From positions 6,257,459 to 6,321,458 of the forward strand of contig NC_064039.1 in the NCBI RefSeq assembly GCF_932526225.1: a DNA stretch of 64,000 nucleotides. The letters run 5' to 3'. The translations under genes and the position numbers were made by a program. Of the stretch, positions 46,562-62,383 are shown in pieces. This DNA is from Nematostella vectensis (lineage: Eukaryota). Below the pieces are notes generated by a model. The model did not search any database. It saw nothing but the letters and a program-made list of their open reading frames with translations, and was not told the DNA's origin. The first letter of the stretch is position 1. Every line of letters begins with the position of its first letter.

Positions 46562-46703
46562 TCCACGGATGTGGTGCGGAGGCTTTAGACCGCACCGCCC
46601 CCACGCGGACCCCTTCGGAAGTCTTAGCAACCACACACATCACACCCAGAGGGAGCTCGAGGGGCTAGCCTCTCAGCTTCACATCTAAAAAAGCTTTTGA
46701 AAA

Positions 46704-46716
46704 GTGGTTTAAAGAC
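46704..46716 (+). promoter_or_regulatory. conserved promoter motif GTGGTTTAAAGAC 18 nt upstream of the TFIIB-like gene ATG
   Basis: identical motif and spacing at 47752-47764 (ankyrin), 48651-48663 (Cys-rich) and reverse-complement 61839-61852 (pPolB). Confidence 0.6.
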
Positions 46717-46733
46717 ATGAACAGTTTAATAAA

Positions 46734-47660
46734 ATGGAGGAACGAACAGTTGAACGTACGGCTGAAGATCGGTCACCACCACCATATAATATCCTCGGCG
46801 GACCGGTGCCTGAGATTAACGCCCCCACCCTCATGCCGGAATTTGCACTGTTTGACCGAGCCCTCACCGAATACGAGACTAGTAGAGCCTCCTTGGGAGA
46901 CGAGGATAGTAGTAACACCCTTTGCAATCATGGCGACCTAGTCACAGAGGACGGGGTCACTAGTTGCTTAGAGTGCGGGGAACAGATGCAGCGCGTGATC
47001 GCGCACGAAAGGGAATGGGGTTTTTACGGACATTCCGACGGCGAACGGTCTTCGGATCCAAGTCGGGTCCAGGTACGTAGGTCTGAGGATAGAAATATTG
47101 ACAAGGATGTGGAGAACATGGGTTTTAGCGGGGTAATTGTATCCAAAGCTAACGAGATATACACTCAGGTGACGAAAGGCCAGATTTTTCGCGGCGACCC
47201 ACGGAAGGCGGTCGTCTTTGCGTGTATCTACTACGCCTACAAGATGTCCGGTAAGTGTCAGACACCGAAAACCTTGATGGAAACTTTTGGATTGAGCAGG
47301 AAGAGTTGCCTTAAGGGTCTAAAAATCTTTAGTATTAACGTGCCTAAAGATTACTTACTACACGGAACGTCTCCCACCGTCGTGGACCACATTCACGATG
47401 TGATGGATAGATTCTCGGCGTCCCCCGCACAGAAGGGAGAGGTGGTCCAGCTCTACTACAGATCTAAGAACCGCTCGTCTGAGTTGAATCGCGCTCGCCC
47501 ACAATCCTTTGCGGTCGCTTTAACCTATTACTGGGTACGGCTAAAGGGGGTCGATATTACACTTAAAAAATTCTCCGAAAGAACGGGCGTCTCCGAGTTA
47601 ACCATCAGTAGGAAAGCGAGAGAAGTGGCCACAGTCCTGGGTACGCCTGGTGTGGTATGA
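46734..47660 (+). CDS. TFIIB-like transcription initiation factor (N-terminal Zn ribbon C-x-H-x15-C-x2-C, B-reader/linker, two cyclin-like repeats, C-terminal HTH)
   Basis: LCNHGDLVTEDGVTSCLECGEQ…EREWGFY parallels TFIIB [24 protein letters not shown]…GSEWRTF; core ANEIYTQV…AVVFACIYYAYKMSG…TLMETFGLSRKSCLKGLKIF parallels TFIIB cyclin repeat 1. Confidence 0.8.
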   Translation: MEERTVERTAEDRSPPPYNILGGPVPEINAPTLMPEFALFDRALTEYETSRASLGDEDSSNTLCNHGDLVTEDGVTSCLECGEQMQRVIAHEREWGFYGHSDGERSSDPSRVQVRRSEDRNIDKDVENMGFSGVIVSKANEIYTQVTKGQIFRGDPRKAVVFACIYYAYKMSGKCQTPKTLMETFGLSRKSCLKGLKIFSINVPKDYLLHGTSPTVVDHIHDVMDRFSASPAQKGEVVQLYYRSKNRSSELNRARPQSFAVALTYYWVRLKGVDITLKKFSERTGVSELTISRKAREVATVLGTPGVV

Positions 47661-47664
47661 TGTT

Positions 47665-47688
47665 TCCTGATTTCCAGAGAAATCAGGA
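47665..47688 (+). terminator. perfect 10-bp stem/4-nt loop hairpin 5 nt after the TFIIB-like stop codon (TCCTGATTTC-caga-GAAATCAGGA)
   Basis: seen in sequence; a similar hairpin follows the Cys-rich gene. Confidence 0.35.
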
Positions 47689-47751
47689 TTTCCAGAAAAC
47701 TGTCAGTTCGGAGTAGATGTGAATTAACACGTCTAAAGAAATTCGAAAAAA

Positions 47752-47764
47752 GTGGTTTAAAGAC
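47752..47764 (+). promoter_or_regulatory. promoter motif GTGGTTTAAAGAC 18 nt upstream of ankyrin gene ATG
   Basis: see 46704. Confidence 0.6.
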
Positions 47765-47781
47765 GTGGATGTAATAACAAA

Positions 47782-48606
47782 ATGGATATGCAAAGTGCTG
47801 GAAGTCTTACAAATCTCACCGTGGAGGATCAAGCCGCCACCTTAGCGAGGTGGGGAGCCGCAGACTTTGACGCCGTTATGGAGCGCGCGGCGTGGGAGGG
47901 GTGCGTCGAGACCGTGAGGTTGTGTAAGAGTTGGGGTGCGACGGATTTCGAAAAGCCGATGGTCAGGGCCGCAATGAACGGCCACACCGAGATCGTTAAG
48001 ATGTGTTGTGAGTCGGGCGCCTGTGACTTCGTGTATCCAGCGTCCATGGCCGCGAAAGGCGGGCACGTAGAGGTTTTGAAGGTGATGGGCGAGTATTGTG
48101 CCGACGGAGGAGAGGCCATGACCGAGGCCATGGGTGCTGCGGCGGCGGAAGGTCAGGTGGGGGTTGTTGAGTTGTTGATAGATCTAGGTGTCGATGTCGA
48201 TGTCGGTTGGGCCACCGCTGAGGCGGCGTACAATGGGCACGTTGAGGTTCTGAAGCTGCTGAGAGAAAACTTCTGGGAGTTTGACCCGGACTATGCTATA
48301 ACACCAGCCATCGAATCTCGCAACCTCGAGATTGTGAGGTTGTGCTTGGAGTGGGGCGCGACCGATCTCATTGTACATATGAACTACGCACGGTTTTGGC
48401 ATCTGCATAAGATTTTCGCGGTGCTACGTGCGGCGTGGGGGTGGAGTCTTGTGCATGAGGAGCTCCCGGAGAAGCTACACAAGGTGAGATTCCGTAGAAA
48501 GCTGGAGGACGAACTAATGCCAGTAGCTTGGCATCCGGACAGGTTTTGGGATTGGTGCATGGATGAGCAAGAGAAGGAAATGTTGGGAGAATGCTTCGCC
48601 AGGTAG
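47782..48606 (+). CDS. ankyrin-repeat protein (at least 5 ANK repeats: …AAMNGHTEIVKMCCESGA…, AAKGGHVEVLKVM, AAAEGQVGVVELLIDLGVDV, AAYNGHVEVLKLL, …NLEIVRLCLEWGA)
   Basis: repeated ~33-aa ANK consensus (A.-G----V--LL--GA). Confidence 0.8.
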   Translation: MDMQSAGSLTNLTVEDQAATLARWGAADFDAVMERAAWEGCVETVRLCKSWGATDFEKPMVRAAMNGHTEIVKMCCESGACDFVYPASMAAKGGHVEVLKVMGEYCADGGEAMTEAMGAAAAEGQVGVVELLIDLGVDVDVGWATAEAAYNGHVEVLKLLRENFWEFDPDYAITPAIESRNLEIVRLCLEWGATDLIVHMNYARFWHLHKIFAVLRAAWGWSLVHEELPEKLHKVRFRRKLEDELMPVAWHPDRFWDWCMDEQEKEMLGECFAR

Positions 48607-48650
48607 ACGCCGACCGGCTAGAAGGCGGGTATCGCGTGTTGGATTGAAAA

Positions 48651-48663
48651 GTGATTTAAGGAC
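48651..48663 (+). promoter_or_regulatory. promoter motif GTGATTTAAGGAC abutting the first ATG of the Cys-rich gene. The 60 bp around it duplicates the pPolB promoter/5' end.
   Basis: AAAGTGATTTAAGGACATGACCGGTTTGATAGAAATGGAGAAC versus AAAGTGGTTTAAAGACATGACTGGTTTGATAGAAATGGAGAAC (pPolB). Confidence 0.6.
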
Positions 48664-49011
48664 ATGACCGGTTTGATAGAAATGGAGAACCAAACGGTGA
48701 AAGACTCGAAAGTATCCCCCGTAAAGCGAACAACGGATTATAAGTGTCTTCATGGCAGAGTGAAATATTATTGCAAAGATTGTCACGGATCGCAAATCTG
48801 CCCTCACAACCGGAGAAAAACGCGGTGCAGAGAATGTAACGGCGGTAGCATTTGTGAGCACAGACGAGCAAGATATGTCTGTAAAGACTGCAAGGGGAAA
48901 GGGATGTGTGAACACAGCAAACAGAGACCCTTTTGTAAGTTATGCGGAGGGTCTCAAATATGCGAACACGATAGACAAAAGCACCATTGCAGAACGTGTA
49001 ACGGAAATTAA
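48664..49011 (+). CDS. basic Cys-rich protein with four tandem zinc-knuckle-like modules C-x2-C-x5/6-C-x-H-x6-C. Putative nucleic-acid-binding/core protein. N-terminal MTGLIEMEN shared with pPolB.
   Basis: CKDCHGSQICPHNRRKTRC / CRECNGGSICEHRRARYVC / CKDCKGKGMCEHSKQRPFC / CKLCGGSQICEHDRQKHHC; K/R/H-rich. Confidence 0.65.
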   Translation: MTGLIEMENQTVKDSKVSPVKRTTDYKCLHGRVKYYCKDCHGSQICPHNRRKTRCRECNGGSICEHRRARYVCKDCKGKGMCEHSKQRPFCKLCGGSQICEHDRQKHHCRTCNGN

Positions 49012-49026
49012 CATTGACCCACTCAG

Positions 49027-49053
49027 TTTTGTAACGCGTCTCACGTTACAAAA
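49027..49053 (+). terminator. 10-bp stem hairpin (TTTTGTAACG-cgtctca-CGTTACAAAA) 16 nt after the Cys-rich gene stop
   Basis: seen in sequence. Confidence 0.35.
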
Positions 49054-49208
49054 CACATACATTCCTAATCACCCTAACAACTAGCGATTCTGAAAATAGG
49101 TTTTGTATTTACATTGAGAGTTCGCGGTCGCCAGGGTGGTCTGGTATGCACGTGAACAGGTATTGTCTTCTTGCGGTACGTCACATCCGTCCACATGCAC
49201 CCCGCATG

Positions 49209-50735
49209 TTACCGGAATAGATACCAAGCTAAACCAGCCGTAAAGGCTGTGATCGTGACAAGGTTATTTTCGTGCTGCGTGTTCGTGGGTTTAATCACGT
49301 CCGGCTTTGGGTTAGTTTTCGCCTCCGGTTCCGGTTTGTGAGCCGTGACTGACTCGGTATGAGGTAACACAATCTTTGAATGACCCATATTATGTTTAGG
49401 GATCGTTTTTATCTCGTTATTTATCGGATTCAGCCCCAGTTTCATATCAGTGGTGGCTTTTTGTAACTTGTTATTATAGCCAGCGATCGAAGTGTTGTTA
49501 TTTATCACAAGATACGATGGACTTAACCAACAGCCGAGGGCGAAAGCTAGGTCTAGTTTTTGTCTCGCCTGTTGTAAAGCAAACTGATACCGTTGTATAC
49601 TTTTCGATATACTGTTTTCCACCACCGCGCTTTCGAAGAGTTTCGTGAAGACCTGTTTCGTTTCCTGAGCTGAACCGCTATCGCCGACGATTGACGACCG
49701 GGTCTGAACTTGCGCGCCTAGAATACAGTAGACAAAGGCTTCGATGCTCTGGTTTATCCTAGACAACCCAGCTTTGGTTAACCCCATTGATTTTTCCGGA
49801 AAGAACCACTCATACTGAAACCCAGTTCTAAGGTCTTTCAGGTACTCGATCTCAAAGTGATTCATGTGTTCGTGGTCGCTTTTGGCAGCGTCCCATTCGT
49901 CGTGTAATTGATCAATGGTGCCATAAGGCTTATACTTGTCGTTAGAAGATGACAAGCCGTGATAATCATAATTATAAACGTTCCCTAACCCGTGATTTAT
50001 CGGTCTGAGGAACCGGAAATCGTCACCAGTTCGGAATTCTGTTCTTAGTTTTTGGTAAGCCGCTTCGCTGTAAAAGTTTTTATTCCAACTAAAGAGCCTA
50101 TCTTTTGGAAGAGGGCATTGTAGCTCGTTTAATATTCGTCTGATAGTGAAAATGATGTGAAATCTGTAGAATGACCCCACTTGAGAGTCGTCAATCATGT
50201 CACGCGTCACACCACATCCAGCAGTCGCGCAAAACATAGCAAAATTTAAGGCTTGACTCCAATAACTGAGGTTTGGGGCGTCGAGCCACCTACTAGCCTC
50301 CTTTGCTGTTCTGAATACTAGCAAGCTGTCGGTGAATATGTCCCTAAAAACAAAGTGTGTCTTCACCTTTGGTGTTATAAAAACATTAAAAGAGACGTAA
50401 TTATTTCTCGTAGGGTTTTCGTCCCACGGCAATATCTTGTACTCTGCACGCGCGTCTAGTCTGTATTGTTTTGGGAACCCAAACAGTTGCTGGATCGTTT
50501 CCTTGTATGCTTGTGTGTCGTCGGCGACTAGAAAATCCTGGATATTCTCGGGTTTCCAGCTATTACCAGGGAAGTGATATAACGTTTTGACTAGATTCCC
50601 ATTCTTGTCGAATGGATCGTATTCGTCCCCATTGAAAACGAATTGCACATTGCCGTGCCCGTCGGCAGAGAACCTGAAGCGTGAGTAGTAGGGGTACCTT
50701 TTCACAAATTCTGTAAACTTCATCTTATATGACAT
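49209..50735 (-). CDS. hypothetical 508-aa protein with C-terminal transmembrane anchor (LVTITAFTAGLAWYLFR); no recognisable family
   Basis: long intact ORF with GATTTAAAAACATC promoter-like motif upstream; second in-frame ATG (M5) has the canonical spacing. Confidence 0.6.
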   Translation of the reverse strand: MSYKMKFTEFVKRYPYYSRFRFSADGHGNVQFVFNGDEYDPFDKNGNLVKTLYHFPGNSWKPENIQDFLVADDTQAYKETIQQLFGFPKQYRLDARAEYKILPWDENPTRNNYVSFNVFITPKVKTHFVFRDIFTDSLLVFRTAKEASRWLDAPNLSYWSQALNFAMFCATAGCGVTRDMIDDSQVGSFYRFHIIFTIRRILNELQCPLPKDRLFSWNKNFYSEAAYQKLRTEFRTGDDFRFLRPINHGLGNVYNYDYHGLSSSNDKYKPYGTIDQLHDEWDAAKSDHEHMNHFEIEYLKDLRTGFQYEWFFPEKSMGLTKAGLSRINQSIEAFVYCILGAQVQTRSSIVGDSGSAQETKQVFTKLFESAVVENSISKSIQRYQFALQQARQKLDLAFALGCWLSPSYLVINNNTSIAGYNNKLQKATTDMKLGLNPINNEIKTIPKHNMGHSKIVLPHTESVTAHKPEPEAKTNPKPDVIKPTNTQHENNLVTITAFTAGLAWYLFR

Positions 50736-50813
50736 ATAAGATGTTTTTAAATCAGTCCTTTACGCATCTCAATTCATAGATCCATCCGACGGGAGTTCTC
50801 TCGTACAGAAATT

Positions 50814-51419
50814 TCACCGAGCGGGTCGACTCGCCAGGTCTTTCAAAATCTCTTCTCTTACTGTTTCCCTCAGCTTGGTAATGTTTACGTTTTTTTCGTC
50901 CTCTCTTACCGACTTTTGACGGATCTGGAGCTTTAGAGCCTCAAACTTGTCCACCTCGTTCAAGATTAAAGAGAACTCTTCGTCTGATATTTTGTTGTCT
51001 TTTAAAGCTTTAGAGACCAGGTCGCGTATGCTATTTACTTTTGCCTTTGCCATCGCCGCTGTTTGGTCGTGCTTGGAGACTTTTTGCGACAGCCGTTTAG
51101 AAACCGCCGCACAGCCTACAGACGTAAGACCGAAAACACCGGCCAAAGCACCCAACGGAACTCCGACGACGATACCAAAACCTGACAGAGAAGTCCCCAA
51201 ACCACTAGACCCAAGAATGACGGATAAGAGTCCTAAGACCACACTTAACTTTGAAAACACGCTCTGCCCTCGTTTATACTTTTTCCTCACGTTCTCGTAA
51301 TGTTTAACTTCTTGCTCCAAACTTCCCAAAACATCGTGGGTCTTTTGGAGTCTGAAGTTATCACCCGAGGGGCTGACCCCTCGGGGTACGTTCGGGTAGA
51401 TTGAGTTGTACTCTTCCAT
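50814..51419 (-). CDS. hypothetical membrane protein (201 aa, two glycine-zipper TM helices, C-terminal coiled coil)
   Basis: ORF plus upstream CACTTAAAGAAT motif. Confidence 0.55.
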   Translation of the reverse strand: MEEYNSIYPNVPRGVSPSGDNFRLQKTHDVLGSLEQEVKHYENVRKKYKRGQSVFSKLSVVLGLLSVILGSSGLGTSLSGFGIVVGVPLGALAGVFGLTSVGCAAVSKRLSQKVSKHDQTAAMAKAKVNSIRDLVSKALKDNKISDEEFSLILNEVDKFEALKLQIRQKSVREDEKNVNITKLRETVREEILKDLASRPAR

Positions 51420-51446
51420 AGCTTTATTATGGGGAGAATTTATTCT

Positions 51447-52070
51447 TTAAGTGATTTCTAAAATTAGACGTATCGGGTAGAGACCGCGCTCTATTGTGTT
51501 TCCGTCACCACCCTTTATACTAAGACGGAGACTACTCACGTAACCGACTGATGTGGTGCTAACCCGTACCGGATCGCTTGGATTGAGGTATATCTTTCCT
51601 TCATCAAGCTCTACACTTGCTAGGATTTGTGAGGGCGCCCCTTGTTGGAGGGAGTCAGACGCGTTCACAAGATCGCAGTGGATAAAAATAGCCTCGTGAC
51701 CTATCATCTTTATCTCGTGGCGAGTGTTTGCTTCCAGCTCCCTGGTCTTGAGTCCTAACAGGCAGGCGAGCGGCTCATTCAACGCGACGTTCCGGTGAAC
51801 TTCGAGTGACGAGTCTCTAATAGAGACTGACTTTTCACCAAGACGCATACCCCCATCTATTTGACGTTTTAGCGTCTCGATCGTATACTGCCCCGCGGGG
51901 ATCCTAAGGATAATGTTCTCACCGTCGGAGACCGTTCCCTCGCTTGAGAGACTGTTACAACGATTATGAAACGCACATCCTCGCAGCGCGATAAACCGCG
52001 GCTTTTCAATAGGTTGTTCTAAATAGACAGTAAAGTCACCAACGTTTCCTTCAATGTAGAGTAATACCAT
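51447..52070 (-). CDS. hypothetical beta-rich 207-aa protein; candidate single-jelly-roll minor capsid (penton) protein
   Basis: size, position in the virion-gene block and alternating hydrophobic pattern; upstream GATTTAAAAGGAGAC motif. No motif-level recognition. Confidence 0.45.
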   Translation of the reverse strand: MVLLYIEGNVGDFTVYLEQPIEKPRFIALRGCAFHNRCNSLSSEGTVSDGENIILRIPAGQYTIETLKRQIDGGMRLGEKSVSIRDSSLEVHRNVALNEPLACLLGLKTRELEANTRHEIKMIGHEAIFIHCDLVNASDSLQQGAPSQILASVELDEGKIYLNPSDPVRVSTTSVGYVSSLRLSIKGGDGNTIERGLYPIRLILEIT

Positions 52071-52073
52071 TTG

Positions 52074-53096
52074 TTATGATTTCCGTCTCCTTTTAAATCG
52101 TTCTACGGAATACAGGACGACAGCGACGATGAGAAGCCATGCGTTTTTAGCTAAAAAGCCAACAACTTCACCTGCCGTTCTAAATATGAAACTAGCTATA
52201 GCACCAACCATTCCTGGGAGTATTTCTCCTAATTTTTTGCCTATTGTTTTCAGACCATTTCCAACACCTTTTGCAACACTAGTCAGCCCAGCTTTCAGAT
52301 TAGAGACAATAACACCGATAACAACGCCCACAGCGGTAACGACAGCAGCGACTGTAAATCCGTATTTCTTAAAAATCGCTTTGACACGATCTTTCAACGA
52401 CATTCTCTCTTCAAGATTTTCTCTCTCCAATTGATTCTCTTCCAAAGTCTCATCTATGACAGAATTTCTTTCGCTGAGCTCTTCATTTTTACGATCTATA
52501 GCTCTTAGTCTTTCTTGGTTAGTTGTTTCACTTCGTTCCTCATTATTTTTTCTCATTTGCTCGGTGTTTCTCTCTTCTTCTTCTCTGAGTGTATTACCTG
52601 TAGCGTCTAGTTCATCGAGTTGAATCTGAATTTGCTTGTACTTTCCGGATCTGATTTTGTCGTCAACACTCTTCCGCACCGTTCTATCCTCATTATACAA
52701 CCTTTCTGGTCTAGTCCAACCACCTTTTCTCGCAGAATAGAAGGAAATGAATTGTTTTCCTCTCTCATCCGTTGAAATCTGAACTAGATTTTCATCAAGA
52801 TCTGGATATTTCGATAACAAAAGGTCTACCCTAAGTGTGTCCGTTGAAGGAGAACCTCCCATATTCTGTAACTCCATGTACTCGGGGACAGCCCTCCCGG
52901 GGTTTCGTGTTTTCCATAAGTCAGTCAACCTCCTACTCACATAGCTTGCACCTCTACCAAATCTGTTTGAAATCCTTTCATTCCATGATTCTCTTCCCTC
53001 ACCATCGTTTGGAATAAGAGAGTCATAATCTTCGTCTACAGTAGTATTCAAATCTTCTCTACCTTCTTCTGTTGTGGGATCAAAATCTATATCCAT
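52074..53096 (-). CDS. hypothetical 340-aa protein: acidic N-terminus, E/R-rich coiled coil, C-terminal multi-TM region
   Basis: ORF plus upstream GACTTAAAGATTT motif. Confidence 0.55.
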   Translation of the reverse strand: MDIDFDPTTEEGREDLNTTVDEDYDSLIPNDGEGRESWNERISNRFGRGASYVSRRLTDLWKTRNPGRAVPEYMELQNMGGSPSTDTLRVDLLLSKYPDLDENLVQISTDERGKQFISFYSARKGGWTRPERLYNEDRTVRKSVDDKIRSGKYKQIQIQLDELDATGNTLREEEERNTEQMRKNNEERSETTNQERLRAIDRKNEELSERNSVIDETLEENQLERENLEERMSLKDRVKAIFKKYGFTVAAVVTAVGVVIGVIVSNLKAGLTSVAKGVGNGLKTIGKKLGEILPGMVGAIASFIFRTAGEVVGFLAKNAWLLIVAVVLYSVERFKRRRKS

Positions 53097-53140
53097 TTCT
53101 TATTTTGTTTGAAAATAAGAAATCTTTAAGTCGTGCCAGC

Positions 53141-53557
53141 TCATATCCACCTACTCGCTACATAGCCAAGGGCTAACATTCCACCTCCAACGTACGCCAT
53201 CTCTCCCATCTTTTGGTTGCTACTTGGTCTGTAGTAATCTGAGAGCTCAGGCTCTTTCAAATCAAAATCTGGATGTGTTTGAGCGTATAGTTTGAAAGCC
53301 TCATCCGTCTCTTTATCGTTCTCATCCGCACGAACTTTATCGTTGTATTGTTCAGTCAACCAATCCTGGTATTCCTGTCTTTTTTTCTGCCAATCACCCA
53401 TTGCTTGTTGATACTTTTCAAGCGCTTTATCGTGTCTTATTTTTTCTTTATCAACATGAGTAGCGTCAGAAGACAAGTATCTCGCTAGGTAACTCCCTCC
53501 GACAAACGCCGTCGCATTAATAAAAGCCCCACCAATCATAAATGCTATACTCGCCAT
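53141..53557 (-). CDS. hypothetical membrane protein (138 aa; N- and C-terminal TM segments)
   Basis: ORF plus upstream CGACTTAAAGATC motif 19 nt from ATG. Confidence 0.5.
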   Translation of the reverse strand: MASIAFMIGGAFINATAFVGGSYLARYLSSDATHVDKEKIRHDKALEKYQQAMGDWQKKRQEYQDWLTEQYNDKVRADENDKETDEAFKLYAQTHPDFDLKEPELSDYYRPSSNQKMGEMAYVGGGMLALGYVASRWI

Positions 53558-53589
53558 TTATTAATCAATCTATAAGATCTTTAAGTCGC

Positions 53590-53814
53590 CTACAGCGGTT
53601 TTGGCAAAATCTTTTGTGTTTCCAGATAATCTTTCAGATACATACTACCGGACAGGACAGCAACCCATTTAGCGTAGTTTGTAACACTTGACGAAGGGTC
53701 GCTGATGAATGACTCTTTCATAGCCTTTTTAGCAACATAACCCACGCCGGCGGCTAATCCGATGATGACTGCTGAGTCGGTGATCGTTTTCACAAGTTTG
53801 TTTTCAGTTGACAT
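53590..53814 (-). CDS. hypothetical small membrane protein (74 aa)
   Basis: ORF plus upstream GATTTAAAGATTATC motif, preceded by the 30-bp palindromic element. Confidence 0.45.
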   Translation of the reverse strand: MSTENKLVKTITDSAVIIGLAAGVGYVAKKAMKESFISDPSSSVTNYAKWVAVLSGSMYLKDYLETQKILPKPL

Positions 53815-53849
53815 GATTTTATTTATTACAGATTCAGATAATCTTTAAA

Positions 53850-54311
53850 TCACAACATTCCTATTTTTGGCGTCGCGTTCGGGAGGCTAGCCCCTCGAGC
53901 TCCCCCTAGGTGGGAGGTGGGTCTCCCAAGAGTTTCGGCCTCGTTGACGTTAATCTTAGACGGCTCGCCCTCTTTCTTTTTGTAAAAACGCATATACATA
54001 TCCAATGCGGTGAGCCCTATTCCAACTAGAGCCAGTACAGTTGTAAACGATAGCTCTGGAATCCAAGCGTCCGAGAGGCTATCCCCTCGAGCTCCCTCTT
54101 GGTGGGGTGTCTCTGCTCGTGCAGCGTCTTCTGAACTCGCCTCCGCCTCGCGTTTCATCTCCCTAGCAAGTGCTTCTCTACACCTCCTATTATATTCGGC
54201 AACTCTCTTACCAGAAGCGACTTTTATAGGATCTTTCTCCTTAGCGGCACTCTTCTTCCTGGGGGGAGGGTCCTTTGTGATTTGCTCAACCTCTTGATTT
54301 TCGTCAGACAT
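53850..54311 (-). CDS. hypothetical 153-aa protein, basic N-terminus plus one TM
   Basis: ORF plus upstream GATTTAAAGATTC motif. Confidence 0.5.
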   Translation of the reverse strand: MSDENQEVEQITKDPPPRKKSAAKEKDPIKVASGKRVAEYNRRCREALAREMKREAEASSEDAARAETPHQEGARGDSLSDAWIPELSFTTVLALVGIGLTALDMYMRFYKKKEGEPSKINVNEAETLGRPTSHLGGARGASLPNATPKIGML

Positions 54312-54453
54312 GATTCTTTACTCACTGAATAAAGAATCTTTAAATCACATCATGCTCAAGAGCTTGCTCAGTTGTGCTCAAGAGCTTGCTCAGGTGTGCT
54401 CAAGAGCTTGCTTAGGTGTGCTCAGGTGTGCTCAAGAGTTTGCTTAGGTGTGC

Positions 54454-54981: not shown

Positions 54982-55043
54982 CTTATTTTGTAAGTAGACC
55001 AAGATGTTTTTAAACCACTTCGAGGGGTCAGCCCCTCGAGCTC

Positions 55044-55670
55044 TCACCGCGTGGCAGGAATCTCCAAATAACGTTGGAATGGATGTCGTAGGCAGAAACA
55101 GAGTCTGGAATACTTTTCAGTTTTCAGCAGTTCTACAAACTTTTTACGAGTCTCAACGTCTAAGTCACCCCCATAATCTTCAAACAGTGTTTTGGTACCG
55201 ATTTGAGATGGATTATGGAATGTAACCACACAGGCGACGTTATCACGGAAGGGCTTTGCTATGGATGTTAATTGTTGCGTCAATACCCACACTGATAATC
55301 CTTCGTGTCTCCCTGAGAACGCTAAATTGATAAACTTGTTCGAGCGTTGCTTTAGATCTTTCGATACAGCACAGTCATCCAAAACGAGTAACGTATTTGT
55401 ACCAGAAAATAGCACCGCACAATCTGTTAGTAACTCGTTAATCTCATCGGTGTTACTAGCATCCGGCGATAATACCAAGAAACGTTTATCTCCGTGAGCA
55501 AATCTACGATAGGACTTGTTTTTCGCATAAGTCGGACAAATCAACACAATGTATTCAAACACATGCCGGAACGGCCCTCGGAGCTGTTCCGTGAGGTACT
55601 TTGTCTTCCCACAATTAGTAGGTCCTGTGATAATACAATGAAAAGGAACTTTTTCCCGTAATTCTTCCAT
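55044..55670 (-). CDS. FtsK/HerA-superfamily (A32-like) genome-packaging ATPase; Walker A GPTNCGKT, Walker B LLVLDD. Likely start MEELREK (the ORF call 55044..55691 starts on a non-ATG codon).
   Basis: P-loop and hhhhDD motifs, ~210 aa, location next to capsid gene as in Polintons/virophages. Confidence 0.85.
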   Translation of the reverse strand: MEELREKVPFHCIITGPTNCGKTKYLTEQLRGPFRHVFEYIVLICPTYAKNKSYRRFAHGDKRFLVLSPDASNTDEINELLTDCAVLFSGTNTLLVLDDCAVSKDLKQRSNKFINLAFSGRHEGLSVWVLTQQLTSIAKPFRDNVACVVTFHNPSQIGTKTLFEDYGGDLDVETRKKFVELLKTEKYSRLCFCLRHPFQRYLEIPATR

Positions 55671-55698
55671 TCTTTTTGTATTATCACACAAGTCCTTT

Positions 55699-56937
55699 TT
55701 AATACATGATTGCTCTCAAATTCGAGTTCATAACCTCCATCAACGCGTCGGCTACTACAAACATGTAGCAGGTGATGTTTCCCGTTCCTCCAACTTTTCG
55801 TTTCATCTCGAGTTTTACTCCGTCTCGCGTGTTGTTCAAGACCAGACCTCCTCCGTGAATGCTGTTATCTGGGTGTGCCCTCAAGTCGACCCACAGAGCA
55901 AACTTGTTATTAGCGTAAAAATCCTTTTGCTTGACACCCTCTCTACCGAAACGTTTCTTTACCGACTCCCAGAGGTCCGGCGGTGTCATCCCCTTGGAGT
56001 AGAGACGGTTTGGCATGCCATCCACATTAATGTTGATCGATGTGATGCTTGGATTGACAAACTTTTCGGAATCCCTTGCTCCTCCGGTGTAGCTCTCTGT
56101 GAACAGGCACAATATCCCTGTCATTGACCTCCTCGGCAGATTAATGTGCTCGTTTATGACACCATCATTAGGTTTGGAGATGGTGAACGTTTTGTGGAGA
56201 ATGACGTTCTCGTAAAAGAATCCTCTACCAACCTGATAAGCCGACAACGCCTCACGAGCTAAGTATTCACTTGAGATGCAAGCATATTCCAACTCGAGGT
56301 TTGTGATTGTGTACGTTGGAGTCTTGACCGTGTCAGCATAAACAACGACGTCGGAAACTGGGGCTAGAGTAATTTCAAAGATTAGCGGATGAGGTAACGC
56401 CTTTGGATAAAAGACCCCATGCTCGCCGAGAATAGGATGGTCGAGTGGAATGCAGTACTTGGTGTTGTGAACTGCTGCAAGAGCTACTTCCTTAGCATCT
56501 GATGTCGCTTTGTCACCTGCATTTGTCCTGAGCTTCCTCATGTTCTCAGAGGAGATACCTTGTTTTATTCTATCCTCACGATCTTCAGCTTGTAAGTATA
56601 AGTCGTGATAGGTTTGGAAGAGATCGTATCTTTGAGTATCCTGTAGTGTTTCTCCACCGAAAAGAATCTTGAGCCTTGACACTAGGTTCCGGCCAACGTT
56701 GTTGACGAGAGTATTATTCGCGTGTCCTGTGACGTTTAAGTCAAATAGTAAGGATACACTACCTGGAACAATCACTACATTTTCAGCAAGTTTTGGAATA
56801 TTTATATAGAGGGTTTCTCCAGGACTTGCCGATGAGGGATTGAATGTAATCCGATTCAGCGACGATTCCGCTTTCAGGCCGAAGGGTTCCCGTGGGATCC
56901 TGTTTGGGTTAATTTTTTCTGATATCGCTTGTGCCAT
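55699..56937 (-). CDS. putative double-jelly-roll major capsid protein (412 aa)
   Basis: beta-rich 45-kDa protein immediately upstream of the packaging ATPase, the conserved MCP position in Polintons; no direct motif proof. Confidence 0.55.
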   Translation of the reverse strand: MAQAISEKINPNRIPREPFGLKAESSLNRITFNPSSASPGETLYINIPKLAENVVIVPGSVSLLFDLNVTGHANNTLVNNVGRNLVSRLKILFGGETLQDTQRYDLFQTYHDLYLQAEDREDRIKQGISSENMRKLRTNAGDKATSDAKEVALAAVHNTKYCIPLDHPILGEHGVFYPKALPHPLIFEITLAPVSDVVVYADTVKTPTYTITNLELEYACISSEYLAREALSAYQVGRGFFYENVILHKTFTISKPNDGVINEHINLPRRSMTGILCLFTESYTGGARDSEKFVNPSITSININVDGMPNRLYSKGMTPPDLWESVKKRFGREGVKQKDFYANNKFALWVDLRAHPDNSIHGGGLVLNNTRDGVKLEMKRKVGGTGNITCYMFVVADALMEVMNSNLRAIMY

Positions 56938-56970
56938 CTTTTATTTTAAGAAAAGAGAGATAATCTTTAA
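56938..56970. promoter_or_regulatory. 33-bp bidirectional promoter between MCP (-) and integrase (+): TTTTAAGAAAAGAGAGATAATCTTTAAA carries the TTTAAAGA-type motif in both orientations
   Basis: palindromic arrangement TTTAAGA…TCTTTAAA. Confidence 0.5.
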
Positions 56971-57963
56971 ATGAGTAACGAAAGCAGGTTATCAAAAATA
57001 TACTATTCCACCGATGGATACTGGAAAGGGTATTCAGCTATTTATAAGTTAGCTAGTGTCGCTAAAGTCAGTGAAGCCGAGGCTAAGAGGTGGCTTGAAA
57101 AACAGGCGTTGTGGCAGATCTATCTCCCAGCTCCAAAGTATGTCCCCAGACCGCATTGGACTGTGAATAAACCTAATCAGATTCACCAAGCCGATCTGTT
57201 GTTTATGCCCCACGATAACGTAGGCAGAAAAACCTACCGTTACGCGTTGGTCGTGATTGATATTGCCTCGAGATATAAAGATGCAGAAGCACTGACTACC
57301 AAGGATTCGAGTGGAATTGCTAAAGGGTTTGAAAAGATATACTCCAGAAAACTTAAATGGCCTCATACGGTGATTGTCGATCCGGGGACAGAATTTAGGG
57401 GAGAGGTAACGAAGATTATGAAAAAGAAGGGGGTTACCATCCAGCGAAGCGAAGCTGGGAACCATCGCGCACAGGCTTTTGTCGAACGCGCCAATAGAAC
57501 ACTGGCGGAGAGGTTGTTTTCTTATCAGTATGCTCAAGAAATGATTAGCGATGATCGGTCCAGAGTTTGGGTGAAACGATTGCCAGATGTTTTGAAGACT
57601 CTGAATAGTCAACCCATAAGAATTACTGGCAAAGAGCCTGTAAAATCTATTGGTTTGAAAGAGGTTGATATTGACCCTCCAACGTATAAGCGGCCTGTTG
57701 GACTTGACGAAGTTAGACTACCACCAGGGGTTAGAGTTAGATATCTATTAGCTCCTGGAGAAGAGGAAGGAGGTGAACGCAGACGAGCCACAGACCCCAT
57801 TTGGAGTTTGAAAGTGTTTGATCTATCACGCAGTGTTGTTTCGGTTGGGCAGCCTGTGTTGTACTACCTCTCCGAAGGCGCTCCAAGGAGGTCGTTCGTT
57901 AGGGAAGAACTTCAAGTCGTCCCTGAAGATACTGAGCCACCACCTAATAGCGTTCTGAAATGA
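56971..57963 (+). CDS. retroviral-type (rve) DDE integrase with C-terminal extension
   Basis: catalytic triad context HQADLLF (D) … VIVDPGTEF (D) … NHRAQAFVERANRTL (E); ~35-aa D-E spacing. Confidence 0.9.
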   Translation: MSNESRLSKIYYSTDGYWKGYSAIYKLASVAKVSEAEAKRWLEKQALWQIYLPAPKYVPRPHWTVNKPNQIHQADLLFMPHDNVGRKTYRYALVVIDIASRYKDAEALTTKDSSGIAKGFEKIYSRKLKWPHTVIVDPGTEFRGEVTKIMKKKGVTIQRSEAGNHRAQAFVERANRTLAERLFSYQYAQEMISDDRSRVWVKRLPDVLKTLNSQPIRITGKEPVKSIGLKEVDIDPPTYKRPVGLDEVRLPPGVRVRYLLAPGEEEGGERRRATDPIWSLKVFDLSRSVVSVGQPVLYYLSEGAPRRSFVREELQVVPEDTEPPPNSVLK

Positions 57964-60900
57964 CCGTGAGCGAAGGTGTGAATACCATCATCACAGATGA
58001 CCCGTTTATCATCCTCATGAGATAGAGCGACCTTGTTCACCGTTTCAGTGTAAACATCATGCTTATGACTTCTGATGACATTCATAAGTCTCATCTGAGG
58101 TTTCTTACCAAATAAGCAATCCTTGTAGTCATCGAAACCGATGCTCTTCTTGACGACTGCTCTCTTGACGCCCTTGCATTTCTTTTCTTCTTTACCTTCA
58201 TCCATCTTGTACGAGTAAAGTTTGGCCCTCAGTCCTACAAATTCTGTGATTTGCTGGCCCCCAGCCTCATCTTTAAACATTCCGATGACTTTCTTGTTCA
58301 CACCCACCTCAATACCAGATGGGTGACCCTTCGGAAAGTTGCTGGTGTCGAACATGGACCTCACATCCCCGCTGATGTCCTCGTAAAAGTCTTTCGTCTC
58401 GATCTCATACATCAGGCTGTCAGTATCAGTGAATAAGAGCTTTGCATCCTCACCGTACTTAGGCTTGACGAAGTTGTAGTGGAAATCGTACATGAGCGTC
58501 TTACTCAGGTCCAGAATGGACATACCCAAGTAGACAGGCTTGTTGAAGATCAGCTTTGTCTTCTTCATGTGGATGGCGGCTAGATTCTCGCAAAAGATGG
58601 TGCGATGTTGATAGTTCGGCTTTGATATGAGCTTCTTGGCCTGCTTCTCGTCCGTCACCAACCGAATGTCCACCCTGTTCCTAATGTTCTCCATAGTCTT
58701 ACCAAAGACGGAGTTGTTCATTAACTTGAAAAAATCTTTCTCAAAATCGTTTGTCGCCTTGGCTCTCAGATCGGTGTTCAAGTCAATGTAGGGCTCCAGC
58801 CAAGCAGACTCCTCAAAAGTGACACCCCTGTGAATCTTGGTGACTTTTAGCCCAAAACTCACATAAAGTCTCAGAGTCTCATGGTGGATAACGTACTTTG
58901 TCTTGTCGTTAAGGTTGGGGACCAACTTGTCCACATTGCCTAGCCCGATAGATTCCGGGGCTAGTGGGTAATCGTTGTGTAAGTCATGTAGGTGGTGAGG
59001 GTACTCCAAGTCAACCTCCAGAATGCATGGGCGGTCTCTCCAACCTGACAGCTCTTGGTCACCCATCCACCTGAAACCGTGAGTCGGTAAAGGGTTGCTC
59101 ATCGCCCAGCCATACAAATTGTTAGCATCAAGGTAGGTGATATATTTTGTGGGTAGGTCAGGGTCATACTCCTTCATGTAAGGGTTATTTGCCTCCCCAT
59201 GTCTGTTGCTTATCATGGAGACACCCCCACGGATGCCCTTCTCAATCATGAGCAACATGTCATAGTCCGTTAGAAGCTCTAGCCTCACCTTGGTGGTCTT
59301 CAACGCTGCATCCCAAGCCAACCCTGGCGCTGTGTAGTACCAAGCGGGGTCCAGACCGTAATTCTTGAGACAAACGTCCCTAAAGTTCTCGAAAACGTCA
59401 GCTAAAAGCAACACATCCGACTCTAGGTACAGATTGTGGTAATCCCTCATGGTCCCCATCCCAAAGGCCTCCCACACTCTCCGCGCGTGCAGGTGATCCT
59501 CCTCCGATATGTCGGTGTCGTTGAGTTTGGAGTGGAACGCCTCTCTCTGTGGGAGCTGTGTTGCGTCGAGCTTGCTAAAGCCGTCGAACCAGTCGTAAGG
59601 GAAAACACCCTTCCTCAACAACAGCTGAAGCTCCTCCCCCTCATAGTACTCCGCCAGGTTTTTGAAGCACTCCCTTGACATATTACCCACTAGACTGTCG
59701 AGACTGGCCGACATAAACCTGAAACTGTCGATAAATCTGATATCACGTTTAACATCAATCTTGTTGCCCTCCTTGTTCGTGAAACTGTCGACTACAATCT
59801 GTTTTGTGAAAGAAATATACTTTTCCTCGTTATTAGGTATACAGTTTATTTTACCTTCCGATGTACCAAGGTTCTTGATAAATAGATGGCTGTCGTACCC
59901 AGACAGATTGTGAAAGATAACAGGAAAGAACTTTGGAATTTTGTGATCTAAGTTGCATGCGTTGTGAGCAGCACCTCTGTACTTCCCTGTAAGGTGGCAA
60001 TGGTCCAAAACCTTGTCTTCCCCTAATTCACCCTCACAGATGTGGCAGTGAGTGGCGTCGTTATAGGCGATTTTGTCCTTCGGAGTCATTTTCACCTTCT
60101 TAGGGAACCTGAACTTATCATAAATTTTCTTAATGTCTGACTCCAAAGACTCTACGAAAAGCTGTGGGATATCTTCGTCTGGAGATTCAGCTGTGTATCG
60201 TACAAGCTCGGATGGGGATATATCTCCGTCGAAACACTTGATGAGATAGCAGAAACCAGACGGTTTGTGTTTCTGGTATTGCTTAGTGAAGCTTTTACTC
60301 TCATCTGGGGAGCATGTGTCTATATTCTCTGTGAAGCTCTCAAAGTCGGCGTAGACAACAAAGGGGACACGCATTTTTCTGTTGTAGTTTTTGAATTTAA
60401 TGTGGGGTAGATTTCCATCCTTATCTATCTTAGGCATCTCTATTCCAACCGCTTCATGATTGCCGCAGCATTCAGAATGTTTTTCTAATGATTGTTTGCA
60501 CCGAAACGAGTTCAGACATCTACAGCATAAAAAACGAGTATGATGAAACTCATCAATTTGAGTAGATACTAATCTCATCATATTCTTTATCCAGCAGTAA
60601 TGATTCGTCTCATCATCCGAGATGAGAAGTAAGTTGATTGCATTATCTGGATCCTTCTCACTGATTCTCAATGGATATATTTTGGTTTCGTATCCAAACA
60701 CATTAACCGTATACTGGTTCTGTTTCTCGAACTTGTCAATCTGTTTTAGTGAGACGGGGAACTCTATCCCTGACCAGTCGAATTTCTCAGAGCTCTCTAT
60801 CATTTGTTTACTGAACCTTTGAGGATCTTTCTCCCTAGGATACACAGCAGAGGTTACTGCCCACTTGAAACATTCGTGATCATTCTCGTTCTTAACATTG

Positions 60901-61838
60901 ATGATCGCCTTCTTAGACGCTAGTTTCAGCGGCAGCGGAATATAGGAAGACCCAGAAAGCGGTTCAAAGGGATCTATGTTGATGTCAAAGTATTCCACTT
61001 GGTCAAACTGCCATCCGGAGCCTTGCTTCTGGAACAGCTCAACTAATCCGAGTAAATAATTTGTCATCGTATCGAACAAATCAGAGAGATCAGTCGACTC
61101 TGTCACAATCTCGGGCTTCTCTGTATGAAAATATCCCAGTTCTTCTTCGATCTGAGCTGTAGCCGGATCCTCTTTTATAAACCCGCAAGTAAAGATAAAC
61201 TTCACTTTGATAGGCTTTTTTTGTCGACTGATGAGCTCTAAGACTTTCGGTTTGATTCTGGCGATGAATGTCTTGGGGTCGTAACCTCTCTGCCCGGCTA
61301 TTCCGTGGGTTTTAAGATACCCCTTCAACGCCGTCTGTTGTTCCTTGGGTGTGAAGCGATCTTCCACCTCCTCGTGTAGACGCTTAATCCTCTCCTTCAG
61401 ACGTTCGACCCGTTTATCTGCAGCCTCTTTGACGGTCTTTTTGACGGGCTCGGGGACATAAGATAGTATCCAATCCGCAAACTTGTCTAACTCGCTCTTG
61501 ATCAAGTTGGCCGCCCTGTTTGCAAAATGCTTGAGTGATTGGACGCGGGAACTCCGTGGGGGTTGGGAGGGTTTTAGAATAGGGACATTAATCTCAGGTA
61601 TCGGGCCGTCGAGAATACTCTCCGACGTGTTGGACGGGGTAATGCGGGGTGGTCGTGGCAGCCCTTTGACAAGTTTGGGTAAAGGAACCCGTCGGGGTGG
61701 TGGTGGTGGTGACGTGCTGGTCAGCGCCCCGACGAGCTCGTCTCTCCGCATCCAGTAATATCTTGGGATACCCCGCTCCTTGGCGAGGGCTTTCAGATCT
61801 TTCACCTTCAGGTTCTCCATTTCTATCAAACCAGTCAT
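57912..61838 (-). CDS. protein-primed family B DNA polymerase (1308 aa) with N-terminal SAP motif, proline-rich linker, TPR1-like N-terminal region, exonuclease and polymerase domains
   Basis: Pol motifs YLDANNLYGWAMS (motif A), KLMNNSVFGKTMEN (motif B), LLFTDTDSLMYEI (motif C); SAP LKVKDLKALAKERGIPRYYWMRRDELVGAL. Confidence 0.95.
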   Translation of the reverse strand: MTGLIEMENLKVKDLKALAKERGIPRYYWMRRDELVGALTSTSPPPPPRRVPLPKLVKGLPRPPRITPSNTSESILDGPIPEINVPILKPSQPPRSSRVQSLKHFANRAANLIKSELDKFADWILSYVPEPVKKTVKEAADKRVERLKERIKRLHEEVEDRFTPKEQQTALKGYLKTHGIAGQRGYDPKTFIARIKPKVLELISRQKKPIKVKFIFTCGFIKEDPATAQIEEELGYFHTEKPEIVTESTDLSDLFDTMTNYLLGLVELFQKQGSGWQFDQVEYFDINIDPFEPLSGSSYIPLPLKLASKKAIINVKNENDHECFKWAVTSAVYPREKDPQRFSKQMIESSEKFDWSGIEFPVSLKQIDKFEKQNQYTVNVFGYETKIYPLRISEKDPDNAINLLLISDDETNHYCWIKNMMRLVSTQIDEFHHTRFLCCRCLNSFRCKQSLEKHSECCGNHEAVGIEMPKIDKDGNLPHIKFKNYNRKMRVPFVVYADFESFTENIDTCSPDESKSFTKQYQKHKPSGFCYLIKCFDGDISPSELVRYTAESPDEDIPQLFVESLESDIKKIYDKFRFPKKVKMTPKDKIAYNDATHCHICEGELGEDKVLDHCHLTGKYRGAAHNACNLDHKIPKFFPVIFHNLSGYDSHLFIKNLGTSEGKINCIPNNEEKYISFTKQIVVDSFTNKEGNKIDVKRDIRFIDSFRFMSASLDSLVGNMSRECFKNLAEYYEGEELQLLLRKGVFPYDWFDGFSKLDATQLPQREAFHSKLNDTDISEEDHLHARRVWEAFGMGTMRDYHNLYLESDVLLLADVFENFRDVCLKNYGLDPAWYYTAPGLAWDAALKTTKVRLELLTDYDMLLMIEKGIRGGVSMISNRHGEANNPYMKEYDPDLPTKYITYLDANNLYGWAMSNPLPTHGFRWMGDQELSGWRDRPCILEVDLEYPHHLHDLHNDYPLAPESIGLGNVDKLVPNLNDKTKYVIHHETLRLYVSFGLKVTKIHRGVTFEESAWLEPYIDLNTDLRAKATNDFEKDFFKLMNNSVFGKTMENIRNRVDIRLVTDEKQAKKLISKPNYQHRTIFCENLAAIHMKKTKLIFNKPVYLGMSILDLSKTLMYDFHYNFVKPKYGEDAKLLFTDTDSLMYEIETKDFYEDISGDVRSMFDTSNFPKGHPSGIEVGVNKKVIGMFKDEAGGQQITEFVGLRAKLYSYKMDEGKEEKKCKGVKRAVVKKSIGFDDYKDCLFGKKPQMRLMNVIRSHKHDVYTETVNKVALSHEDDKRVICDDGIHTFAHGHFRTLLGGGSVSSGTT

Positions 61839-62383
61839 GTCTTTAAACCACTTTTCAAAAGCTTTTTTAGATGTGAAGCTTAGAGGCTAGCCTCCCGAGC
61901 TCCCCCTAGGTGCGACACGTGACAAAGTGATTGACAGGTGGGCTTGACTATCACGTGACAAAGTGATTGACAGGTTCTTGACAAAATGATTGACAGGTTC
62001 TTGACAAAATGATTGACAGGTTTTTTACAAAGTGATTGACAGGTGGGCGTGGCTATCACATGACAAAGTGATTGACAGGTTTTTGACAAAGTGATTGACA
62101 GGTGGGCTTGGCCGTCACGTGACAAAGTGATTGACAGGTTTTTTACAAAGTGATTGACAGGTGGGCTTGGCTATCACGTGACAAAGTGATTGACAGGTGG
62201 GCTTGGCTATCACGTGACAAAATGATTGACAGGTGGGCTTGGTCGTGCGAGAGATCTCTGGCAAACTCGCGCATGCGCAGGTCGCGAGGCTTGGCGGAGG
62301 TGTGCGGAGACTTTTGCGCCACTTTTGGAATGAAATTTGGGGAGATCAAAAAGTTGCGCCAGCTGCGCCAAAACCCTACTACT
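61839..62383. repeat. right TIR (545 bp) with ~12 TGATTGACAG-containing subrepeats and 4-5 CACGTG boxes
   Basis: reverse complement of left TIR. Confidence 0.9.

Follow-up and report, generated by a model that had tools for sequence, protein, structure and literature searches.

The window analysed here, a stretch of 64,000 nucleotides of the sea anemone Nematostella vectensis, contains a complete Polinton/Maverick insertion of 16.6 kb at positions 45749-62383. Its boundaries were set by alignment of the terminal inverted repeats (TIRs) and by comparison of the flanks, both of which carry the 5-bp target site duplication (TSD) CCCTC. An earlier annotation of this DNA (the original prediction) had described a promoter motif common to the genes between 46700 and 61855. 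This interval lies inside the Polinton as assumed. The element itself is wider and includes one additional small gene at 46301-46561. The host flank of the window contains CUB-domain exons and the gene for UMP synthase.

The left end of the element carries, on the plus strand and in this order, an open reading frame (ORF) of 86 amino acids (aa), a TFIIB-like gene, an ankyrin-repeat gene and a Cys-rich gene. The minus strand contains ORFs of 508, 201, 207, 340, 138, 74, 153 and 175 aa, and then the genes for an A32-like ATPase and the major capsid protein (MCP). The rve integrase gene on the plus strand converges with the pPolB gene on the minus strand, which encodes 1302-1308 aa, and the two genes overlap. 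The features by which a Polinton is recognized were all found, namely pPolB, the rve integrase, TIRs with a short TSD and a capsid module of MCP and A32-like ATPase. The packaging ATPase matched the Pfam family Pox_A32 (3.7e-11), and the integrase matched rve with an E-value of 9.9e-8 and 32.6 bits, which is exactly the gathering score. For MCP the match to Capsid_N was weak (0.0036) and below the cut-off; 755 MCP homologues were found. No polymerase match was obtained for pPolB in Pfam and among the PDB sequences. Its assignment is based on orthologues in related elements and on the motifs YADFES (Exo I), NLSGYD (Exo II), YLDANNLYGWAM (motif A), KLMNNSVFG (motif B) and FTDTDS (motif C). Neither a penton protein nor a protease was identified among the genes of the element, and Pfam scans of its ORFs revealed no RNA polymerase, capping enzyme or poly(A) polymerase.

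A short box precedes nearly every gene, as had been claimed. The core [CT]TTAA[AG][AG] was present in sense orientation, starting 40 to 15 nt before the start codon, in 14 of the 15 genes. Dinucleotide shuffling (2000 replicates) gave a mean of 1.21 and a maximum of 8, and the antisense count was 2. The most frequent 7-mer of the 60-nt upstream regions was TTAAAGA (9/15; maximum of the shuffled sets 6). The expected enrichment over shuffled upstream regions was therefore obtained. Comparison with the host background gave a divided result. The strict form YTTAAAGA was about 6-fold denser in the element, whereas the loose core was no denser there than in the equally AT-rich host flank (0.80 versus 0.92 per kb and strand). 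TTTAARGA was not enriched in the window as a whole (12 observed, 10.4 expected). Thus, the signal is mainly positional. Within the interval of the original prediction, 10 of the 12 matches to TTAARGA lie sense-upstream of start codons. The other two, at 58270-58277 (-) in the 3' part of pPolB and at 50966-50972 (+) antisense in the 201-aa ORF, do not precede a recognized gene start and are probably chance matches.

Taken over all genes, the consensus of the box is RR[T/C]TTAAA[G/A]A, starting 26-35 nt before the start codon, and an A-rich TAATAA-like element follows within about 10 nt of the ATG. The positions of the individual boxes are given in Table 1. The terminal-class 19-mer AAAGTGRTTTAARGACRTG was found in exactly the four predicted copies, before the TFIIB-like, ankyrin, Cys-rich and pPolB genes, with an ATG 18-19 nt past the TTTAARGA core. 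By chance 0.12 copies would be expected. A copy with three mismatches lies at 55021 (-), before the 175-aa ORF. The predicted internal motif GAYTTAAAGAT was present in exact form before the 340-, 138-, 74- and 153-aa ORFs and with one mismatch before MCP; for about five further genes the term "close variant" had been generous. Looser variants (CTTAAAGAA, TTTAAAAG and TTTAAAAAC) precede the 201-, 207-, 175- and 508-aa ORFs, and the ATPase gene has only ATTAAAAAGG. The internal boxes are alike in the core only; their flanks differ. In agreement with the original prediction the 33-bp spacer between MCP and integrase contains a box for each of the two genes, TTTAAAGA on the minus and TTTAAGAA on the plus strand, and both are kept in relatives. 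The proposal that pPolB and the Cys-rich protein start at the second ATG (MEN...) agrees with the spacing rule and with the orthologue in the related locus L005, which also has a MENQ start.

Table 1. Coordinates of promoter boxes, genes, repeats and hairpins of the Polinton (window positions).
Feature	Position	Strand	Remarks
Polinton termini	45749..62383		AGTAGTAGGG...CCCTACTACT; from TIR alignment and flanks
Left outer TIR	45749..46261	+	array of 23/36-bp repeats (CCTGTCAATCACTTTGTCA...)
Variant box TCTAAAGA, 86-aa ORF (46301-46561)	46273..46280	+	-28 from ATG
Inner TIR segment	46640..46754	+	contains terminal-class promoter and first codons; mirrors 61801-61915; 115 nt, 83% complementary
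Terminal-class promoter AAAGTGGTTTAAAGACATG, TFIIB-like gene	46701..46719	+	core 46708-46715, ATG 46734
TFIIB-like gene	46734..47660	+	Zn ribbon, B-reader, two cyclin folds; Pfam TFIIB 1.5e-8
Terminal-class promoter, ankyrin-repeat gene (47782-48606)	47749..47767	+	exact copy of the 19-mer
Terminal-class promoter (TTTAAGGA core), Cys-rich gene (ends 49011)	48648..48666	+	likely start second ATG, 48682
Box TTTAAAAA, 508-aa ORF (49209-50735)	50744..50751	-	-28 from second ATG, 50723
Box CTTAAAGA, 201-aa ORF (50814-51419)	51444..51451	-	core match
Box TTTAAAAG, 207-aa ORF (51447-52070)	52090..52097	-	core match
Box CTTAAAGA, 340-aa ORF (52074-53096)	53123..53130	-	12-bp perfect hairpin 53095-53123 between box and ATG
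Box CTTAAAGA, 138-aa ORF (53141-53557)	53578..53585	-	core match
Box TTTAAAGA, 74-aa ORF (53590-53814)	53842..53849	-	abuts stop codon of 153-aa ORF
Box TTTAAAGA, 153-aa ORF (53850-54311)	54337..54344	-	9-bp hairpin 54312-54338
Box TTTAAAAA (GAAGTGGTTTAAAAACATC), 175-aa ORF (ATG 54981)	55007..55014	-	core match
Weak variant ATTAAAAAGG, A32-like ATPase gene (55044-55670, ATG 55670)	55694..55703	-	outside core pattern
Box TTTAAGAA, rve integrase gene (56971-57963)	56945..56952	+	at -26; TTTAAAA/TTTAAGA in relatives
Box TTTAAAGA, MCP gene (55699-56937)	56964..56971	-	kept in most MCP orthologues shown
Terminal-class promoter, pPolB gene (57912-61838)	61836..61854	-	likely start second ATG, 61820
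Right outer TIR	61894..62383	-	same repeat array as left TIR
Perfect hairpins of 8-12 bp at gene boundaries	47665-47688, 49026-49054, 50721-50743, 53095-53123, 54312-54338, 55020-55039		

Boxes are present before the first gene at each end of the element, where they lie inside the TIRs, and before MCP and integrase, which diverge from each other. None of these places has a gene upstream. At the convergent 3' ends, i.e. at 49011-49209 and in the overlap of integrase and pPolB, the box is absent. Consequently, the box is tied to the 5' ends of genes and not to their 3' ends. This distribution argues against an RNA-processing signal, be it a 3' splice or trans-splice acceptor (TTTAAAGA, with the junction before the last A) on a polycistronic transcript or a polyadenylation or termination signal of the upstream gene. 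Such a signal would fit the AG and short leader that most boxes have, the close packing of the one-strand genes with some boxes adjoining the preceding stop codon, and the AATAAA-like strings close to the start codons. It would not explain why boxes stand before genes that have no upstream gene and are missing after the final genes of the converging blocks, why the boxes of the 508- and 175-aa ORFs (TTTAAAAAC) lack the AG, or why giant viruses have the same box before genes of both strands (see below). Spliced-leader trans-splicing has been reported to be absent from Nematostella. The trans-splice acceptor and the terminator were both rejected, as the AG is not invariant and the box precedes first and divergent genes; we consider an RNA-processing role very improbable. 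In the promoter of the TFIIB-like gene an out-of-frame ATG (46717) directly follows the box. If the first-AUG rule holds, the start site would therefore lie downstream of this ATG, which would leave a leader of at most 14 nt.

Relatives of the element were fetched by means of their MCP, which yielded 53 metagenome loci and four long-contig loci; a scan of IMG/VR with the MCP alignment gave no relatives. The anticipated conservation of the motif was found. In relatives with MCP identities of 48-95% the box was kept before orthologous genes. It stands at the same distance in L005 (MCP identity 75%), L128 (83%) and L011 (67%), and occurs as the variants CTTAAGA/ACTTAAAA in L013 and L032 (62-64%); the flanks were unlike throughout all relatives compared. 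The MCP box is retained in most of the orthologues shown, down to 48% identity, and the integrase box likewise, with diverging flanking sequence. Among 364 ORFs of the MCP relatives, box starts peaked at -30 to -26 (47) and at -35 to -31 (27), whereas the 5-nt bins upstream of -40 had 0-7 each. TAATAA, as a second element, had its peak at -10 to -6. An unbiased 6-mer test, from which the window was excluded, gave TTAAAG, TTTAAA, ATTTAA and TTAAAA as top words.

With these data at hand, a pattern without specific function can be judged, in which the boxes are a by-product of the AT-richness of intergenic DNA and of the duplication of TIR/promoter segments. The density of the loose core in the host flank and the near-random count of TTTAARGA in the window are what such a by-product would give, and the TIR duplication accounts for two of the four terminal-class copies. 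It is contradicted by the strand-specific and positional clustering, which is far above that of composition-preserving shuffles, by internal boxes that have a common core but unlike flanks, and by conservation at orthologous positions down to 48% MCP identity. The composition by-product was rejected on the shuffles, the positional peak of the family and the conservation before orthologues, and its probability appears negligible.

The original prediction had further proposed an element-specific transcription programme, plausibly read by the element's own TFIIB-like factor. This part was not borne out. By tblastn no TFIIB-like or ankyrin gene was detected in any of the fetched MCP-related loci. 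L005 is without detectable TFIIB and ankyrin genes and is nevertheless complete, with TIRs of 202 nt that are 100% identical; L011 likewise lacks both genes and has terminal repeats. L128 is also without them, but is an interrupted element. Since the complete-looking L005 and L011 keep the box without a TFIIB gene, the motif is older than the TFIIB capture and independent of TFIIB.

The TFIIB-like protein of 308 aa is an exact match to N. vectensis XP_048581547 and belongs to a 33-member cluster at 90% identity from several chromosomes; exact look-ups of two other Nematostella copies (P0139 and P0122) matched no record. It was aligned to human TFIIB (E 1.8e-5) over residues 63-114, which cover ribbon and reader (weak, 5 bits), and over residues 122-296, which form the core. 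A B-reader-like EWxFY...DPSRV and both cyclin repeats are recognizable in this alignment. Over 89% of its length the protein is 50-70% identical to hundreds of metagenome proteins of about 275 aa. All fetched neighbourhoods of these metagenome TFIIBs are giant-virus-like, with contigs of up to 395 kb and 22-40% GC. The sampled neighbourhoods contain Rpb2, Rpb5, Rpb10 (RNA_pol_N), minor capsid protein P9, NIF phosphatase, TK and Fapy glycosylase. Many of the contigs are labelled GVMAG in IMG/VR, and one UniRef entry is named "viral metagenome". In a neighbour-joining tree of 52 sequences the five Nematostella TFIIB variants form one clade, which is nested deep among the giant-virus TFIIBs. The simplest reading of these sequence relationships would be that the Polinton captured its TFIIB gene from a giant virus. 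Because the inner TIR copy contains the promoter and first codons, the captured ORF seems to have been placed behind a TIR-borne pPolB promoter. Other proteins of the Polinton gave no matches in the giant-virus loci except for a 37-aa SAP/Rho_N-like stretch of pPolB.

The TFIIB-like protein and pPolB also have an 18-aa motif, ILxGPxPEINxPxL, in common, with 61% identity between aa 19-36 of the former (46788-46841) and aa 68-85 of the latter (61565-61618). In the TFIIB-like protein it lies in a Polinton-specific N-terminal extension, which also contains PPPY; the motif is absent from the giant-virus TFIIBs. These sequences suggest either that a duplicate of the 5' end of pPolB was joined to the captured TFIIB ORF or that both proteins may use a common docking peptide.

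The upstream regions of 737 giant-virus ORFs were analysed in loci with a TFIIB of 44% or more identity to that of the Polinton; this clade was picked by TFIIB similarity and not by co-occurrence with a host. The same core peaked at -30 to -26 (119) and -35 to -31 (54), i.e. in the same bins as in the Polinton family, and the distal upstream bins gave 3-11 each. The box stands before about one in four giant-virus genes and is strand-biased. TAATAA peaked at -10 to -6 (143), and TTTAAA, ATTTAA and TTAAAA were the top words of the unbiased 6-mer test. The original prediction had compared the motif with the promoter logic of giant viruses and virophages. This likeness turned out to be literal, as the box recurs, at an unchanged distance, in an uncultured clade of giant viruses.

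A further motif of these loci is AAAATTGA, the mimivirus-type early motif, which peaked at -50 to -36. On the giant-virus contigs L059-L127 two positionally distinct classes were observed, AAAATTGA at -50 to -36 and RRYTTAAAA at -35 to -26, together with a strong TAATAA at -10 to -6. As the clade uses AAAATTGA, it probably belongs to the Imitervirales. The promoter class is kept within giant-virus orthologous groups: a thioredoxin-like 238-aa group was of the box type in 23/29 cases, and other groups in 14/16, 8/9 and 6/7. The giant-virus TFIIB gene itself was of the early type in 25/40. Loci whose TFIIBs were less similar (33-44% identity) had the box more rarely, before 10% of the genes, a comparison confounded by their higher GC content. 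The 364 ORFs of the Polinton family gave no positional peak of AAAATTGA. The flank AAAAGTGR of the terminal-class promoters is one base off AAAATTGA, which is suggestive only. A division into early and late promoters along the terminal and internal classes would be plausible.

A third trait in common with the giant viruses was found in the hairpins of the intergenic regions. Of perfect hairpins of 8 bp or more, the Polinton contains 6 in its 1173 nt of intergenic DNA and 2 in its 14459 nt of coding DNA, corresponding to 5.1 versus 0.14 per kb; shuffling of the intergenic regions gave an expectation of 0.23. Three of the boundary hairpins separate a box from the ATG that follows it. For the giant-virus loci, where hairpins of 9 bp or longer were counted, the densities per kb were 3.76 (intergenic), 0.18 (coding) and 0.23 (shuffled intergenic). 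In mimivirus a "hairpin rule" governs 3'-end formation. By analogy, the boundary hairpins of the Polinton may be 3'-end signals of this type.

From the observed anatomy, statistics and conservation of the motif and its giant-virus parallels we consider it probable, at roughly 60%, that the motif is a per-gene core promoter of the giant-virus type and follows giant-virus grammar. Each Polinton gene would then be a transcription unit of its own under a bipartite core promoter. The box would be a TATA-like or TFIIB recognition element-like site for the assembly of an initiation complex of the TBP/TFIIB type. Initiation would be predicted about 15-25 nt past the box, near the TAATAA element, and would give very short leaders. 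Accordingly wired like a virophage, the Polinton family would have genes that the transcription machinery of a co-infecting giant virus can read. The captured TFIIB may bias this machinery, or alternatively host RNA polymerase II (Pol II), towards the element.

Several points weigh against this interpretation. Promoter function and leader length are deduced from sequence. TTTAAA is also a weak TATA box, so a shared box could reflect common recognition of the TBP type and not a specific partnership. No giant virus infecting cnidarians was identified in this analysis, and the TFIIB contigs come from metagenomes (ENA, JGI, Tara and IMG/VR) without host assignment. With its own integrase and pPolB and its multiple copies in an animal germline genome, the element looks like an autonomous nuclear Polinton. 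The tree of the TFIIBs carries no support values. The box class of the giant viruses was not shown to be "late": Pfam analysis of the box-class orthologous groups gave only a thioredoxin-like domain (below the gathering cut-off) and DUF5772. Profiles of upstream ATGs and of their depletion in giant-virus genes revealed no clear start-site boundary. Finally, the AT-richness of the giant-virus loci (22-40% GC) inflates the enrichment of AT-rich k-mers over a distal background that is coding in part. More weight belongs to the strand bias and to the positional peak, which is sharp and 10 nt wide, than to the k-mer enrichment.

Within the promoter reading, a helper giant virus and host Pol II are roughly equal candidates for the polymerase. 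The helper virus is favoured by a promoter grammar that is shared in full and by leaders that would be very short, whereas the autonomous-looking, multi-copy germline biology and the lack of a known cnidarian giant virus favour host Pol II with the captured TFIIB. In its fullest form the former possibility is tentative: the sea-anemone Polinton family might be provirophage-like and parasitize a giant virus, probably one related to the Imitervirales, that infects cnidarian cells now or did so once. Its genes would be silent until the viral polymerase reads the shared RRYTTAAARA promoters, and the TFIIB taken from the virus would redirect the viral transcription apparatus to the Polinton.

The other possibility is that host Pol II transcribes the element. 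In this case the box would be a TATA-like site for host TBP, the captured TFIIB would replace or compete with host TFIIB to the benefit of the element's promoters, and the likeness to giant viruses would reflect shared ancestry of Pol II-type initiation complexes and not co-infection. The lack of genes for RNA polymerase, capping enzyme and poly(A) polymerase and the insertion of an integrase-bearing element in several germline copies are consistent with this. Moreover, the TFIIB-like protein keeps the ribbon, the B-reader and both cyclin folds, whose cellular counterparts contact Pol II, TBP and DNA, and TTTAAA resembles a variant of the TATA box. Metazoan spacing, with the TATA box about 30 nt before the start, would however lead to leaders of 0-5 nt or to starts inside the ORF, which would be unusual in animal mRNAs. 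UMP synthase, the one clear host gene in the window, is without such a box (n=1). Box, TAATAA and hairpins are common to viruses that have their own polymerase, and the relatives without TFIIB retain the motif. As a rival to the main reading, transcription by host Pol II along these lines is possible and less probable.

Promoter sharing of this kind is known from virophages. Virophages and endogenous virophages have promoter motifs in common with their giant viruses; mavirus and type-4 EMALEs use the CroV late motif TCTA, and Sputnik uses the mimivirus late promoter (PMC8547959). Matching of motifs is used in the field for pairing virophages with giant viruses (PMC11502894). As in the Nematostella Polinton, practically all genes of a small dsDNA element capable of integration have one short motif before them, and this motif also occurs in giant-virus genes. 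The Polinton family uses only the second class, without AAAATTGA, as Sputnik and mavirus use the late promoters of their helpers. In contrast to the virophages, the motif here is RRYTTAAARA and not TCTA, and the element is a true Polinton with pPolB and rve integrase in an animal genome, with a giant-virus TFIIB and no known helper.

The Polinton-like virus Gezel-14T (PgVV-14T) carries the promoter motif of its giant virus, Phaeocystis globosa virus, and depends on that virus for transcription (bioRxiv 10.1101/2022.07.28.501842). It is thus also Polinton-related with a giant-virus promoter motif, but there the early motif AAAATTGA stands before only some genes and the host is an alga, whereas here a second, non-early box stands before nearly all genes in an animal. 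Some polintoviruses of stony corals, like certain other Polintons, carry the giant-virus late transcription factor VLTF3 (PMC11131425, citing Krupovic and Koonin 2016). These are likewise cnidarian Polintons with a transcription-factor gene exchanged with giant viruses, the factor being VLTF3 there and a TFIIB homologue here. The coral paper contains no promoter analysis ("promoter" has 0 occurrences in PMC11131425).

Poxviruses and African swine fever virus have bipartite promoters in their intermediate and late classes, with an AT-rich core, a spacer and an A/T-rich initiator near the ATG, and give very short leaders (PMC5294985). The intermediate class of vaccinia is read by the TBP/TFIIB-like factor VITF-3 (PMC5294985; PMC12917281). 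The Polinton promoters resemble them in the upstream AT-rich core, the spacer and the putative initiator near the ATG, and in the predicted very short leaders and recognition by TBP/TFIIB-like proteins. They differ from them in that these viruses have TAAAT and TATATA initiators and their own virus-encoded polymerase. Cellular promoters with TATA box and TFIIB recognition elements are similar in their AT-rich box with conserved flanks (AAAGTGR upstream and CRTG downstream in the terminal class) and in the presence of a full-length TFIIB homologue. However, TTTAAAGA does not match TATAWAWR, and 26-35 nt to the ATG appear too short for canonical spacing together with a normal leader. A review of promoters of nucleocytoplasmic large DNA viruses contains no TTTAAA-type motif and does not mention the second giant-virus class (PMC5294985).

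In the literature searched, no TFIIB and no such promoters were reported for an animal Polinton. No paper on Polinton, Nematostella and TFIIB was found, and searches for the motif string returned irrelevant papers only; the coverage was incomplete, and an earlier description may exist. Virophage-style promoter sharing is known. New here is the combination of virophage-style logic with a captured TFIIB in a bona fide animal Polinton. This bears on gene expression from the Polintons of animal genomes, and on whether these Polintons meet giant viruses as the virophages of protists do. Box, captured TFIIB and giant-virus-like hairpins converge on the same uncultured giant-virus clade, and the question becomes experimentally accessible in Nematostella, a tractable animal model. 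An unknown giant virus associated with cnidarians would be predicted. With the signature of a box at -26 to -35 and TAATAA, Polintons could be matched to giant viruses in metagenomic data. The analysis also yielded a second, non-early promoter class for a large group of uncultured giant viruses. Mavirus acts as an inducible defence against giant viruses in Cafeteria. If the Polinton is indeed provirophage-like, it might offer the animal a similar inducible defence.

Some minor features of the element were also observed. The ankyrin protein gave six weak matches only in a homologue search (best 38% identity), which give no origin for its gene. The 86-aa ORF at 46301-46561 (+) has a hydrophobic C-terminus and lies within a segment of about 390 bp that is unique to the left end. 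The TIRs contain about a dozen tandem units of 23/36 bp (CCTGTCAATCACTTTGTCA with or without CGTGATAGCCACGCCCA) at about 45900-46261 and at 61894-62230, many of them with the palindrome CACGTG; these may be protein-binding arrays at the ends of the element. Within the integrase ORF, at 57195-57262 (+), a full-length match to the Rfam miRNA precursor mir-9460 was found (102.9 bits, E 1.7e-24). This "miRNA" may be a small RNA from, or aimed at, the multi-copy Polinton. A GC-rich palindrome, CGAGGGGCTGACCCCTCG, occurs at 51364-51385 and 55020-55039, with related copies near 46650, 54940 and 61905, and thus in coding and intergenic sequence and at the inner edges of both TIRs. A tandem repeat with units like CACCTGAGCACACCTAAGCAAACTCTTGAG at 54360-54480 (-) spans the region from the stop codon of the 175-aa ORF to the promoter box of the 153-aa ORF.

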